A stretch of DNA of 32,000 bases from Candidatus Hermodarchaeota archaeon. Its GTDB lineage: Archaea; Asgardarchaeota; Heimdallarchaeia; Hodarchaeales; Hodarchaeaceae. The stretch covers positions 96,427 to 128,426 of the forward strand of contig JBHLKY010000014.1 of NCBI GenBank assembly GCA_048886185.1, written 5' to 3'. Below, in pieces: positions 14,835-27,505 of this stretch (within the stretch, counting starts at the first letter, position 1; each line of letters opens with the position of its first letter). A model generated the notes under the pieces. That model saw nothing but the letters and a program-made list of their open reading frames with translations. It was not told the DNA's origin and made no database searches. Both the position numbers and the translations under genes were made by a program.

Positions 14835-15866
14835 TCAGGTTACATCTACGACCCCAATCTCTGTTAATCCAAATATTGCCTCATTTTCAGGAAGAAGTGG
14901 ACTATCCACAATTCGAGCAATACGTCGTTCGCCCTTTGATTTTCGGAGGTAGACCCGTGTTTGAGCTGCATGGGCAACAATATGGCCTCCAACAGGATGG
15001 GTGGGATCACCAAAAAATTGGTCTGGTTTGGCATGAACTTGGTTTGTGACTATAACAGCTAGATTTCCGATCTCGGCTGCTCTCAGAATAGTATGAATAT
15101 GTTGATTTAACTTTTGTTGTCGAGTAGCTAAGGTTCCTCGACCTACATACTCAGCTCTAAAGTGAGCAATCATTGAATCAACTACAAGTAATCTAATATT
15201 TTTAGTGGGCAGATAATCTTTAATCATTTTTTCTACTAGAACCATTTGATGATCAGAATTATGAGCACGTCCATGTAAAATGTTTTCGAGCAATAAATCT
15301 TCATCTAAATCATCCTGCCAACGAGAAGCCATCGATAATACTCTTTCTGGGCGAAATGTTCCCTCGCTATCTATATAAACTACTCTTGGGTAGTTATCTC
15401 CTTCTCGTAGGCCACCCTTTTCACGAGGGAGTTGGACAGTCACACAAAGTTGATGGGCTAGCTGAGTTTTTCCAGTCCGAAATTCGCCAAAAAGCTCCGT
15501 AACGGTCCCTGTTTCTATTCCACCACCAAATAGTTCATCTAACTTCTGGCTACCTGTAGTAACTTTAGCCAATTCTTTACGTCTAGCCAACACGGATTTG
15601 GCAGTTTCAAAATCTATATCAAGTGCTTCTCTTGCAGCTTCAATTATTCTTTTTACCGTTTTTTCCCCCAAACTGGCAATTGAGGTTAATTCCCCAACAG
15701 AGACCGTAGCGATAGATTCTAATGTTGAGAATCCCGCTTCCACTAATTTCGCGGCCGTTGATGGCCCAATTCCGGGTAAATCAGTTATAGATGTCACAGC
15801 ACTCTCTTTATTAACTTTTGTTTCAATCGAAGTATCAGTTTTCTCATTTTTTTTCTTTGGTGTCAT
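14835..15866 (-). CDS. radA: DNA repair and recombination protein RadA
   Basis: N-terminal HhH LPGIGPSTAAKL, Walker A GEFRTGKTQ, YIDSEGTFRPER, Walker B LLVVDS, FRAEYVGRG.LA.RQQKL, VTNQV, GGHIVAHA, ARIVDSP.LP. Start placed at ATG 15866 (MTPKKK) rather than 15920. Confidence 0.97.
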   Translation of the reverse strand: MTPKKKNEKTDTSIETKVNKESAVTSITDLPGIGPSTAAKLVEAGFSTLESIATVSVGELTSIASLGEKTVKRIIEAAREALDIDFETAKSVLARRKELAKVTTGSQKLDELFGGGIETGTVTELFGEFRTGKTQLAHQLCVTVQLPREKGGLREGDNYPRVVYIDSEGTFRPERVLSMASRWQDDLDEDLLLENILHGRAHNSDHQMVLVEKMIKDYLPTKNIRLLVVDSMIAHFRAEYVGRGTLATRQQKLNQHIHTILRAAEIGNLAVIVTNQVHAKPDQFFGDPTHPVGGHIVAHAAQTRVYLRKSKGERRIARIVDSPLLPENEAIFGLTEIGVVDVT

Positions 15867-16160
15867 TATCTTACCCGTCCTCGAGAGAGGTTCTCTCATA
15901 AGACTAATGAGAACTATCATTTTTTTGAACCCATGAACACCTTAAATCTTTTCTGCTTTTAAGGATTAAAGTGAAATTAGGAACATTATAAATGGATCAG
16001 GAGGCTCTATCTCTAATATCCTTTATGGCAAAATAGGCATAAGATTCCCTTCATCATTGTCACCAAAAAGCTCCTACGCCAAATTTAACTCCCAAAAACG
16101 AGTAATAGGCATTTATTCCCTCAATGTGAAATTACCTACCCTCAAGAAGTATATTTTTAC

Positions 16161-24181: not shown

Positions 24182-27100
24182 ATGATTGAGAAAGAGTTTC
24201 AGGAGTACATCAAAAATCTGAAAAAGGATCTTGAAACTCAAGTTCAACTAGCCACACAAGCGCGAGGCTGTAAATTAGATCCTCAAACCTCAATAGAGTC
24301 CAAACTTACGTTTAATTCAAGAGCAAAGATAGCTTCAATTCTGAAGATACCAAAATTAGAGGACTATCTCCCAAGAAATCTTTCTCATCATGAAAATCCT
24401 CTCCTTTTGGCAGCTGATATTGCCAAACAGATTGTTAATGGCCGTTTTGTGAAGAAATCTCGTGAAAATCTTATATTACTTGCATTACACAGTTCACTTG
24501 TTATTATCAGCCAAGGATTGATATCTGTTCCTCAAGAAAGCATCCCAAAAATCACAATTGGCTCTAAATCAAATCATTTAACCATTTACTTCTCAAATAC
24601 GATACGATATGCTACCGGAGAGACTATTGGTTTAATAATGTTAATTGCAGATTATATTAGGCAGGTTTTACATTTAAATCGATTTAATCCTTCACCCGAT
24701 CTCATAAATAGGTATGTTGAAGAAATAGAAATTTATACAGCAATGAATGAGCATTTTTTAAATTTACGAATAGATTTATTAAAATTTTTAGTTCAAAATA
24801 TTGGAATCGAAATATCTGGAGAAGCATTCGAACGAATTGAGGTTCGGAGATATAGGAACTTACCTAATTTAACAAATAAATTGAGGATGGGAATGTGTGT
24901 TGCCTTTGAAAAAGTGATTGAAAGCATTAATTCAATTGCTTCTATTCGTTTTAAATCAGGCATCCCTGAATGGGATTGGTTAAAAGGCCCCTTTGAAGCA
25001 ATTAAAAGGGAAAAACACGAATTTGGGCTAAGGGAAGTACGCGGAACTCAACCTTTACTCTCAAAATCTAGGAAACCTGGGGGGTTCAGATTAAGATATG
25101 GCTTTTCACGCAACACAAGCCAAGGCGCAGCAGGAATTCATCCTGTTACAATGTATCTTTCAGAAATGCTCTCTCCAGGCACAAGTATTGCGATAGATTT
25201 TATGGATCGGCCGATTACGGTTTTTCCTGTTTCAACCTTAACAGGTCCTTTAGTTGAATTAAAAGATGGTTCTAGCGAAAGGATTGAATCTATAAAGAGA
25301 ATTCGTGAAATAGAGGACAAAATAGCTCAGATTTGGGAGATGGGAGACATTTTACTCTCTCCGGATGACATTCCAGCAACAGAAACTATTGAATTATCTG
25401 CTTGGACCGAAGAATGGTGGAGTCAAGAAATCAAACTTTCAATTGCCTCAACAAATTTATCAATTGAAACATTGGCAACCAGCTTGAATATTTCCTTTAA
25501 AAAGTTAGAAAGATTACTACGAGAACCCACACATTATCATCCCTCTCCAGAAACAGCTATTAAACTGAGTAATATAACTAAGGTTCCCATCCATCCTTAT
25601 TATTCATTCAATTGGAATGAAATTGCTATCAGTGACCTTATTAGACTGATTCAGATGTTAAATAGCTCTAGTAATAATTTCTTACCAAATGATAGTGACT
25701 TAAAGTATATTCTCAGACAATTAGGAGTTCCTTTCACCATTATCGAGGATCAAATTCAATCTGAACGATTTCAACCATTTATTCTGACATTAAGAGGAAA
25801 AGAAGAAGAATTATCTCAGATTTTATCTGAATCATCGATTCAAATTGAAACTGAAAAAATTGTGACTAGACTCACAAAAATTTCTGTTCGATCATCATGT
25901 CAGAGAAGAATAGGCTTGAAAATCATTCGAGTAGAAAAAGATGAACCACGCCATATAAATCCACCAGCACATATACTTTTTCCTATTGGTTCTCATGGAG
26001 GTACTCAAAGGAACCTTTTAAAGGCAAAAAATGTAGGTACTGTTAATATCCAACTGTCAGAAAGATTTTGTACAACCTGTAAAGAATCAACTTACGTTTC
26101 TTATTGTCAAAATTGTCAACAAAGAACTATACAGAATTTTGTGTGTAAAATGGGGCATGTTTCAGAAACACAAAAGTGTGAGGATTGTGGTCAGTACGCG
26201 TTCTCTGCAAAAATTAAATCCATTGATATCTCGGGATTATTAGACTCAGGATTCCAAAAAACAGGATTCCTAGATTTAAAGATTATTAAAGGAGTCTCCG
26301 TTCTCAACAGTAAAAATCGAATACCAGAACATATAATAAAGGGTATACTACGAGCAAAACACAAAATTTTTGTTTATAAGGACGGAACAAGTCGTTTTGA
26401 TCAAACCAATGCTCATATTACGCACTTCACTCCGAAAGAAATTCATTCCTCTGTTAAAGATCTCATAAGGTTAGGCTATACTCATGACGTTTTTGGAGAT
26501 GACTTGATTAGCGAGGATCAACTGATTGAGATCAACCCTTATGATGTTATAGTGAGTAAAAAGGCTGGAATATTTCTTGTTGATTTATCTAAATTCCTTG
26601 ATGATGAATTAACATTCCTGTATCAATTAGCTCCTTATTACAGAATTAACTCCCTTAATAACATAACTGGTTCATTAATAATAGGTTTATCACCATTCTC
26701 AATGGTTGCAGTTATAGGGAGAATTATTGGTTACACAGATAACAATGTCACCTATGCTCATCCACTTTGGCACATATTAAAAGGTCGAAATTGTAATGGT
26801 GACATCGACTCAATAACATTACTTCTAGATGCCCTACTTAATTTTTCAACTGAATTAATTCCAGCCTTACGCGGAGGAGGAATGGATATACCCTCTATCA
26901 TCAATCTCTCTGATCAATGGGAAGAAACCTCAGCTTATAGCAGTTATGATTCAGTTTCCATGAATCTCTCTTTTTACCAGATGTTAATCAACAATCCTTT
27001 AAAAGAGAAACTTTTATCTTACAAAATGTCTTGTCTTACTCCTTCTTTGCCTATCTTTCATACAATTGATAACATCTCTAGTTATAGCTTTGAGAACCTG

Positions 27101-27505
27101 TTTCGTGAGAGTAAAATAGTCTCCAAAATAGAAACAGAACTACGAGTTCTCAGTCGTATTAGGGGTGTCAAAGCAGGAGAGTTTGTTGACAATATTTTGG
27201 AGAATGATTTTCTGCCAAAAATAACCACATCTTTAACACGATTTTTTCTTCAACCTGCACGCTGCAACACTTGTAATACTACTTTTAGAAGGGTTCCTCT
27301 CTCAAAATGCCCAGTTTGCCATCATCAGACCATTGGATTAACCTTATCAGAAGGATGGGTTCTAAGATACTTACAAATTATTAATCAGTTGAAAGATAGA
27401 TTTAATTCAGACATTTCCGACTATTGTCTTTCCTGGACAGATTTAGTAGATCTAAATAAGCGATTATTATTTGAAAAAGGGCCTCGTCCAACAACACTTG
27501 TTTGA
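24182..27505 (+). CDS. polC: DNA polymerase D large subunit (DP2) homolog, highly diverged and predicted catalytically inactive
   Basis: DP2 hallmarks QARG..LDP, GGFRLRYG.SRN, GPLVELKDG, EEWW, LFPIG..GG, KGILRAKH..FVYKDGT.RFD, THFTP.EI, LGYTHD, GRIIGY, YAHP, LLLDALLNFS, RGG.MD and three Cys clusters. The catalytic motif reads RNCNGDID instead of RNCDGDED. Confidence 0.92.
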   Translation: MIEKEFQEYIKNLKKDLETQVQLATQARGCKLDPQTSIESKLTFNSRAKIASILKIPKLEDYLPRNLSHHENPLLLAADIAKQIVNGRFVKKSRENLILLALHSSLVIISQGLISVPQESIPKITIGSKSNHLTIYFSNTIRYATGETIGLIMLIADYIRQVLHLNRFNPSPDLINRYVEEIEIYTAMNEHFLNLRIDLLKFLVQNIGIEISGEAFERIEVRRYRNLPNLTNKLRMGMCVAFEKVIESINSIASIRFKSGIPEWDWLKGPFEAIKREKHEFGLREVRGTQPLLSKSRKPGGFRLRYGFSRNTSQGAAGIHPVTMYLSEMLSPGTSIAIDFMDRPITVFPVSTLTGPLVELKDGSSERIESIKRIREIEDKIAQIWEMGDILLSPDDIPATETIELSAWTEEWWSQEIKLSIASTNLSIETLATSLNISFKKLERLLREPTHYHPSPETAIKLSNITKVPIHPYYSFNWNEIAISDLIRLIQMLNSSSNNFLPNDSDLKYILRQLGVPFTIIEDQIQSERFQPFILTLRGKEEELSQILSESSIQIETEKIVTRLTKISVRSSCQRRIGLKIIRVEKDEPRHINPPAHILFPIGSHGGTQRNLLKAKNVGTVNIQLSERFCTTCKESTYVSYCQNCQQRTIQNFVCKMGHVSETQKCEDCGQYAFSAKIKSIDISGLLDSGFQKTGFLDLKIIKGVSVLNSKNRIPEHIIKGILRAKHKIFVYKDGTSRFDQTNAHITHFTPKEIHSSVKDLIRLGYTHDVFGDDLISEDQLIEINPYDVIVSKKAGIFLVDLSKFLDDELTFLYQLAPYYRINSLNNITGSLIIGLSPFSMVAVIGRIIGYTDNNVTYAHPLWHILKGRNCNGDIDSITLLLDALLNFSTELIPALRGGGMDIPSIINLSDQWEETSAYSSYDSVSMNLSFYQMLINNPLKEKLLSYKMSCLTPSLPIFHTIDNISSYSFENLFRESKIVSKIETELRVLSRIRGVKAGEFVDNILENDFLPKITTSLTRFFLQPARCNTCNTTFRRVPLSKCPVCHHQTIGLTLSEGWVLRYLQIINQLKDRFNSDISDYCLSWTDLVDLNKRLLFEKGPRPTTLV

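Follow-up and report, generated by a model that had tools for sequence, protein, structure and literature searches.

The stretch of DNA analysed here (the window, 32,000 nucleotides at positions 96427-128426 of contig C14) belongs to a 4.84-Mb, 96% complete genome of Candidatus Hermodarchaeota archaeon, a member of the Hodarchaeales. It contains a gene for DP2, the large subunit of DNA polymerase D (PolD), which stands at the end of a cluster of type IV filament genes beside the recombinase gene radA. radA (14835-15920, minus strand) is divergent from nine co-directional filament genes (g1 to g9, 16233-24175), and the DP2 gene (24182-27505, plus strand) is the tenth member of the row. The gaps along these ten plus-strand open reading frames (ORFs) are 23, 153, 11, 20, -8, 36, 4, 0 and 6 nt if the longest ORFs are taken, with 22 nt in place of -8 if a later start is used, and the ORF map agrees with the coordinates and gaps of ten co-directional genes given in a first-pass annotation, which a model had made from the sequence alone. 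The identities proposed there for radA, the pilus cluster and DP2 were likewise recovered in matches to Pfam, NCBIfam and the PDB. The AT-rich spacer from radA to g1 (15921-16232) had been put at approximately 370 bp; it measures 312 bp with the longest ORFs and comes close to that figure (about 366 bp) if radA starts at codon 19. This spacer and the one behind DP2 (27506-27742) were inspected by eye, and the latter, which is AT-rich and carries T-runs, likely represents the end of the transcription unit, where transcription would terminate.

The DP2 gene encodes a full-length protein with three PolC_DP2 Pfam domains and the domain architecture of a PolD large subunit, namely N-terminal, central and catalytic domains and three Zn modules. 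Compared to the active enzymes of P. abyssi and T. kodakarensis (PDB 5IJL, 6HMS, 6T8H and 6KNB), it aligns collinearly through the N-terminal, central and catalytic domains (541 bits against P. abyssi DP2) and has the three Zn modules and the RRxP docking domain in common with them. However, its catalytic motif reads RNCNGDIDS against RNCDGDEDA in P. abyssi and, counted along the ungapped block, N872 lies opposite D956, the catalytic residue that is equivalent to D481 of RNA polymerase II (Raia et al., PMC6355029). The aspartate triad of DPBB-2 is incomplete and the protein, hereafter the DP2 variant, is predicted to be catalytically dead, as the first-pass annotation had already proposed. The motif is NGDID in most of the genus and SGNID, NGATD, NGVSD, NGAND or NGVTD elsewhere in it, some of these being down to one Asp; of the two sister-family genomes, one has ANGDID and the other retains no Asp, and families f3, f4 and f5 have DGDED. 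The DP2 variant further differs from active DP2 in having Phe for the His of the LAPHTS motif, and in the position of its gene, which has no linkage to DP1 and belongs to a pilus operon. The PCNA-interacting peptide (PIP) box, defined as Qxx[LIMV]xx followed by two aromatic residues, is not present in the DP2 variant; active relatives in f4 end in QRSLTEFF, and where active relatives have the box the DP2 variant has an invariant GPRPTTL[IVF] tail (window 27455-27505), which could be a docking peptide for some partner. Since there is one DP2 gene in the window genome and one in each relative, the idea that the DP2 variant is a second, spare copy was rejected.

A catalytically dead protein encoded behind a pilus operon might be a functionless, decaying relic that is carried along passively, and several observations have this appearance. 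The catalytic motif keeps eroding within the genus, and the DP2 variant is only 30% identical to the active DP2 of its own class, as against 50% among the active ones (the two dead lineages share 26%), which indicates that its evolutionary rate has risen. In addition, a single in-frame TGA replaces GGA at the invariant Gly237 in one genome (G015, L050:2464-5778, minus strand), a scaffolded draft in which this codon may be either a sequencing error or a fresh knock-out. However, of the 17 species that yielded the whole gene, 16 have an uninterrupted reading frame of about 1107 codons, G015 being the exception, and dN/dS (the ratio of nonsynonymous to synonymous substitution rates) is about 0.1 (range 0.06-0.25), even where synonymous sites are saturated, pointing to purifying selection. 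In the alignment of 17 sequences, 213 columns do not vary; the twelve positions of the Zn modules (eleven Cys and one His) are all among them, and the cysteines of Zn-I, Zn-II and Zn-III and the [FY]RRxP loop are the same in every sequence. The KH-like N-terminus, the cleft and the Zn regions that the first-pass annotation had pointed out are also conserved, the best-kept regions being the surround of DPBB-2, Zn-III and the DP1 interface. A passive relic is therefore very improbable and, given the dN/dS values, close to refuted.

The last pilin gene is followed directly by the DP2 variant in all 17 genus loci that span the junction (the window included), with a spacer of 5-7 nt or a 4-nt ATGA overlap (range -4 to 7 nt), and in many of them a GAGG-like stretch covers the stop codon. 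The same junction was detected in a sister lineage (P0047), whose dead DP2 (motif NGDVD) is placed on a long branch as sister to the whole genus in the tree (support 93/88) and is overlapped by 4 nt by a 29%-identical homolog of g9 (E = 2e-25). The genes downstream of it differ from those in the window, where a CBS-domain gene and a convergent NFACT (RqcH-like) gene occupy 27743-30473; this CBS and NFACT flank was found downstream of the DP2 variant in the 16 genus loci that extend past it, and not in P0047. Because the gap stays between -4 and 7 nt in these 18 loci (17 in the genus plus P0047), co-transcription of the last pilin gene and the DP2 variant, as suggested in the first-pass annotation, is likely. 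Public RNA runs covering window positions 22900-25900 were searched for, and none was listed.

Two simpler origins of this adjacency had been allowed for in the first-pass annotation. One of them, coincidence, does not hold, since the arrangement recurs in every assessable genus genome and is thus not due to chance. The other, that the adjacency was inherited from an active DP2 at the same site, was rejected as well: in families f3-f5 the active DP2 is located elsewhere, unlinked to the pilus locus and approximately 0.85 Mb from the pilus ATPase gene in two closed genomes. In the sister family, the dead DP2 does not lie beside pilus genes either; the pilus ATPase is on another contig in both genomes, and the neighbours of DP2 are threonine aldolase-like and SMC-like genes in one genome and a Zn-ribbon membrane protein in the other. 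The neighbourhood survey that had been recommended as a check thus gave a divided answer, in that the genus and P0047 keep the junction and active DP2 genes sit elsewhere, but dead DP2 and pili are not linked in the sister family. The pairing of pilus operon and DP2 is, on these comparisons, lineage-specific.

To understand what kind of protein the DP2 variant may still be, the small subunit is informative. The genome has a single DP1-like gene (G000:C3:96340-97962, equivalent to L002:1345-2970, minus strand), convergent with an adjoining orc1/cdc6 gene. Four of the five nuclease motifs examined in its product are intact and the fifth, motif III, reads GEHD for GNHD in the window genome and in 17 of 18 genus relatives, DP1 of families f3-f5, which have active DP2, reading GNHD. 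In P. abyssi, the RRxP loop of the Zn-III module docks DP1 (PMC6355029). A complex model of the C-terminal domain of the DP2 variant (residues 940-1107) with the DP1-like protein (residues 130-541), which had been among the checks proposed, passed with a score of 0.88, the best control reaching 0.13; three runs share at least 74% of contacts, the partner has a predicted local distance difference test (pLDDT) value of at least 64, and the interface takes in the Zn-III loop at residues 1035-1042. The mark used for such models was reached by 58 of 80 solved complexes and by 2 of 110 mismatched pairs. The model supports binding of the DP2 variant to the DP1-like protein of the same genome, although a pass may reflect only the likeness to solved PolD complexes. 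Because the DP1-docking module is kept and the DP1-like gene lies beside orc1/cdc6, the DP2 variant seems tied to the PolD heterodimer rather than to the pilus.

Outside the window, the genome encodes a family B polymerase (PolB) of 1460 aa (G000:C16:65973-70355) that ends in CxxC, 14 residues and CxxC, and which looks like a B10-type enzyme with a Cys-rich tail as in Heimdall B3/LC3; this PolB may have replaced PolD. Kazlauskas et al. (2020, NAR, PMC7544198) described a Heimdall B3/LC3-like group in which DP1 is inactive, an active DP2 is lacking and a PolB carries a Cys-rich tail. A B3_Heim protein was found in one genome of the genus, which places our locus in the same lineage as the published inactive PolD. 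The two cases are alike in having a DP2 without an active site, an altered DP1 and a Cys-tailed PolB; the passages on DP2 and on Asgard archaea in that paper contain no mention of gene context. What is new relative to these passages is that DP2 forms a junction with a pilus operon, evolves under purifying selection, retains its DP1 interface and has lost the PIP box, and that decay is much stronger in the sister family.

Considering all of these observations, we favour, with a probability of about 0.6, a lineage-specific rearrangement that joined the pilus operon and the DP2 gene, the DP2 variant being a non-polymerising remnant of PolD. The arrival of the DP2 gene right after the last pilin gene would date to an ancestor shared by the genus and one sister lineage, and the gene would since then have been read from the pilus transcript. 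Its product would still be a working protein that has kept the DNA-binding scaffold, the Zn modules and the DP1-docking module and has lost the PCNA-binding tail; in replicating or repairing DNA it would be the partner of the altered DP1-like subunit, and synthesis would be left to PolB enzymes. As the junction leaves no room for a promoter of its own, a break there would silence the DP2 variant, and selection on its expression alone could therefore explain why the junction has lasted, in a kind of lock-in without any functional tie to pili. The radA gene of the window would be the copy that kept its ancient place in the neighbourhood of the pilus genes.

radA encodes a full-length RadA/Rad51-family recombinase with an N-terminal helix-hairpin-helix domain and an ATPase core (Pfam Rad51, 1.6e-89, and HHH_5). 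It scores 446 bits against the NCBIfam RadA equivalog PRK04301 (cut-off 259) and 437 bits against TIGR02236 (cut-off 361), and its best PDB match is P. furiosus RadA with 348 bits. Five strong Rad51-family genes are present in the genome, the other four being located at C13:19846-20583, C1:129347-130087, C14:24564-25268 and C2:22711-23400; because three of the five share 60-72% identity with one another, the sequences point to a recent triplication of RadA in the genus. radA adjoins the pilus operon in all 19 assessable genus genomes. An apparent loss of radA beside the pilus genes in G015 was rejected, as a 100-N scaffold join (L050:13959-14058) lies just past the first pilin gene of that genome. 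In f4, f5 and one f2 genome, radA is unlinked to the pilus locus.

Several findings weigh against the rearrangement reading. The pilin-DP2 junction is older than the genus and outlives the CBS/NFACT flank, because P0047 keeps the overlap of g9 and DP2 with different downstream genes. At the other end of the locus, the flank beyond radA varies among genus subclades while radA, the pilus genes and the DP2 variant stay together. In at least 12 f3 genomes, the two closed ones among them, a co-ortholog of radA, the best RadA of that family, shares a contig with the pilus ATPase gene and lies 9-14 kb from it. The lineage with the operonic gene has preserved the DP2 variant and the DP1-like protein far better than the sister family has; in the latter, tree branches reach 4-6 changes per site and no DP1 was found at E <= 1e-10. 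Furthermore, one would hardly expect a replisome subunit to be encoded by the tenth gene of a pilus operon, and the proposed role of the DP2 variant in replication or repair has its basis in homology and a single structure model. A junction this tight and old, together with a radA neighbour that stays in place, makes a functional tie conceivable.

As for radA itself, the best RadA of f3 is about equally close to the three similar paralogs of the window genome, and four genes lie between it and the pilus genes, which code for a coiled-coil protein, a glycosyltransferase, an unknown protein and a Ras-family small GTPase (L095:7457-7999, minus strand). Genus-wide adjacency, proximity with intervening genes in f3, lack of linkage in f4, f5 and one f2 genome, and a variable far flank together show that radA near the pilus locus represents an old, fairly stable neighbourhood and not an operon.

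The nine filament genes were assigned as follows, prepilin signals being judged by eye together with hydropathy. A class III-type signal ([KR]G, then V or Q, then a hydrophobic helix) was recognised in g1, g7, g8 and g9. The product of g1 (16233-17180, plus strand, as are all nine genes) is prepilin-like, with the signal RRG/VSPV before the hydrophobic helix and a single transmembrane segment at residues 31-49; it has a weak Pfam match to DUF7289 (24.9 bits, under the cut-off), and its orthologs are 48-75% identical within the genus and 29% identical in family f2. g2 (17204-17659) encodes a small protein with an N-terminal hydrophobic helix and without a [KR]G-type signal, which is kept in the genus and in f2; no family match was obtained for it in Pfam and NCBIfam searches, and it is possibly a minor pilin or an accessory membrane protein. 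g3 (17813-19321) codes for a secretion-superfamily assembly ATPase of the afGspE/FlaI-like type (Pfam T2SSE, 2.4e-38) that is 91-97% identical within the genus and whose nearest PDB entry is 2OAP (A. fulgidus GspE2, 420 bits), followed by FlaI (296 bits). The platform protein is divided between two genes with one T2SSF domain each, g4 (19333-20256) matching the first half of FlaJ/UpsF and g5 (20277-21263) the second, so that they represent its N-terminal and C-terminal halves, respectively.

The remaining genes begin with g6 (21256-21741), which encodes a soluble coiled-coil protein with no transmembrane segment and no family match that is conserved with the operon across the class (31-33% identity in f3). 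g7 (21778-22938) encodes a large prepilin-like protein with the signal RRRRG/Q and a match to the Ig-like Big_1 domain (24.6 bits, under the cut-off), and is a candidate adhesin or tip pilin. Both g8 (22943-23455; weak DUF7262 and DUF7288 matches) and g9 (23456-24175; weak DUF7261 match) are prepilin-like with the signal HRG/Q, g9 being the last pilus gene, whose stop lies 6 nt before the start of DP2. A candidate class III signal (prepilin) peptidase is encoded elsewhere in the genome, at C8:21195-21554, by a gene with a marginal Peptidase_A24 match (27.7 bits against a cut-off of 26.5). The set thus comprises the parts of a filament system, namely an assembly ATPase, a T2SSF platform made by two adjacent genes with one domain each, class III prepilins and, marginally, a signal peptidase. 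An archaellum was considered and rejected: the ATPase scores 428 bits against the NCBIfam FlaI model, under its cut-off of 550, and no ArlH/KaiC-like or archaellin match was found among the nine genes. Because the ATPase falls below the FlaI equivalog cut-off and the locus has no ArlH or archaellin, the cluster is best classified, by its sequences, as a type IV filament operon other than an archaellum.

The ATPase ortholog is present in 77 of the 83 genomes of the class irrespective of the state of DP2, with one ortholog per genome (a second row appears only where a contig break splits the gene). In f3, the operon stops at a g9-like last pilin, which is followed by a convergent HSP20 gene. The cluster therefore seems to be an ordinary archaeal type IV filament operon, conserved across the class, with four or five prepilins, and adhesion or partner contact is its most likely role. 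Cultured Hodarchaeales bear filaments where they contact partner cells (10.1101/2025.02.26.640444), and an adhesive role accordingly fits the operon. Compared to known systems, the locus resembles the haloarchaeal-type PilB/PilC and the Epd/Tad-like split-platform systems in having an ATPase, a platform, class III prepilins and a candidate peptidase elsewhere, and the weak matches to DUF7261, DUF7262, DUF7288, DUF7289 and the PilB3 C-terminal domain were recorded in the cluster. A 2026 survey reported that ordered type IV filament loci are rare in Asgard archaea (PMC13705601). Unlike the archaeal filament loci named above, the window locus is ordered although it is from an Asgard archaeon, lacks archaellum components such as ArlH and ArlB and is trailed by a polymerase-derived gene.

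With the pilus genes and radA on either side of one spacer and the DP2 variant at the end of the row, the locus also invites a reading in which all three make up one pathway of DNA uptake or exchange: the filament would capture DNA or a partner cell, the DP2 variant, as a protein that still clamps DNA, would receive the incoming molecule at the membrane, and RadA would recombine it. This is in line with the tightness of the pilin-DP2 junction in all 18 loci, including the sister lineage with its different downstream flank, with the adjacency of radA in 19 of 19 genus genomes and the nearby co-ortholog in f3, with the conservation of the KH-like, cleft and Zn regions, and with the replacement of the PIP box by an invariant new tail. 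There are also precedents, since pilus-dependent transformation is known in M. maripaludis and Methanoculleus thermophilus (PMC10133366; Thermococcus, which the first-pass annotation had offered as an example, is not among the organisms named there), and the Ups pili and Ced importer of Sulfolobales serve recombinational repair and DNA exchange (PMC11823120, PMC3892339). The latter represent the nearest working model for an uptake role, as an archaeal pilus tied to DNA exchange; unlike the window locus, however, the Ups loci described in these two papers have no polymerase-derived gene. With bacterial competence (Com pilus, ComEA, ComEC, DprA and RecA) the shared logic is that of a filament and a recombinase, and the difference lies in ComEC and DprA, for which the genome gave no match.

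Several observations speak against such a pathway. In the sister family, dead DP2 has no linkage to pili, and the same operon works without DP2 across the class. The DP2 variant is the sole ortholog of the replicative subunit rather than a spare, it keeps its DP1 interface, and no membrane-binding feature was seen in its sequence. The genome has four further radA paralogs, and four unrelated genes intervene between radA and the pilus genes in f3. The first-pass annotation had recognised no ComEC or DprA in the window, and this extends to the whole genome, 96% complete, in which neither ComEC (PF03772) nor DprA (PF02481) gave a match at E <= 0.001; ComEA, CedA and CedB were not searched for. 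The TctA-like family (PF01970, the family of MMJJ_13030), which was proposed as an archaeal DNA transporter by Fonseca et al. (PMC10133366), had no match in the genome either. We thus regard a joint uptake pathway as unlikely. The sharper version of the idea, in which a dead polymerase subunit captured by a filament operon is the cytoplasmic DNA-handling arm that feeds a dedicated RadA and does the work of ComEA and DprA, is quite unlikely, and the suggestion in the first-pass annotation that the DP2 variant acts as a receiver handing DNA to RadA finds no support in a genome with five radA paralogs, a DP1-docking surface that is still in place and an operon that occurs class-wide without DP2.

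A functional link to the filament need not involve DNA uptake. The DP2 variant might have acquired a new filament-linked task, for example as an accessory or regulator of the ATPase-platform complex that docks via the new tail. Its membership in the operon with translational-coupling signals, the invariant GPRPTTL[IVF] tail in the place of the PIP box, and the fact that it is better conserved where it is operonic than it is in the sister family would fit such a task. Nevertheless, no sequence feature of the DP2 variant links it to a known filament accessory, its best-kept regions are old PolD ones, and in other families the operon is complete without it, which makes this explanation, too, a rather improbable one.

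Hodarchaeales are regarded as the nearest relatives of eukaryotes among known archaea, and eukaryotic replicases are thought to have arisen by a swap in which the DP2 core was exchanged for a PolB core, the DP2 tail and an inactive DP1 being kept. Against this background, the lineage may be viewed as a living intermediate, in which selection maintains both a dead DP2 and a changed DP1 alongside PolB enzymes, DP2 being expressed from a filament operon. If the pairing with the pilus genes is a matter of a shared transcript only, as under the rearrangement that we favour, the locus would provide a neat case of a rearrangement locked in by promoter loss. If it should be functional, the DP2 variant would give archaeal DNA uptake its first candidate component on the cytoplasmic side.

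Two further observations concern DP2 genes outside the genus. In a sister-family genome (G023, L079:4406-7411, plus strand), an SMC/Rad50-like ATPase gene lies approximately 1.4 kb from the start of the dead DP2, followed by two genes without a known family. In addition, dead DP2 is without an intein, and many active DP2 of families f3-f5 (L066 and L069-L076) carry one directly after the RNC of the catalytic motif.

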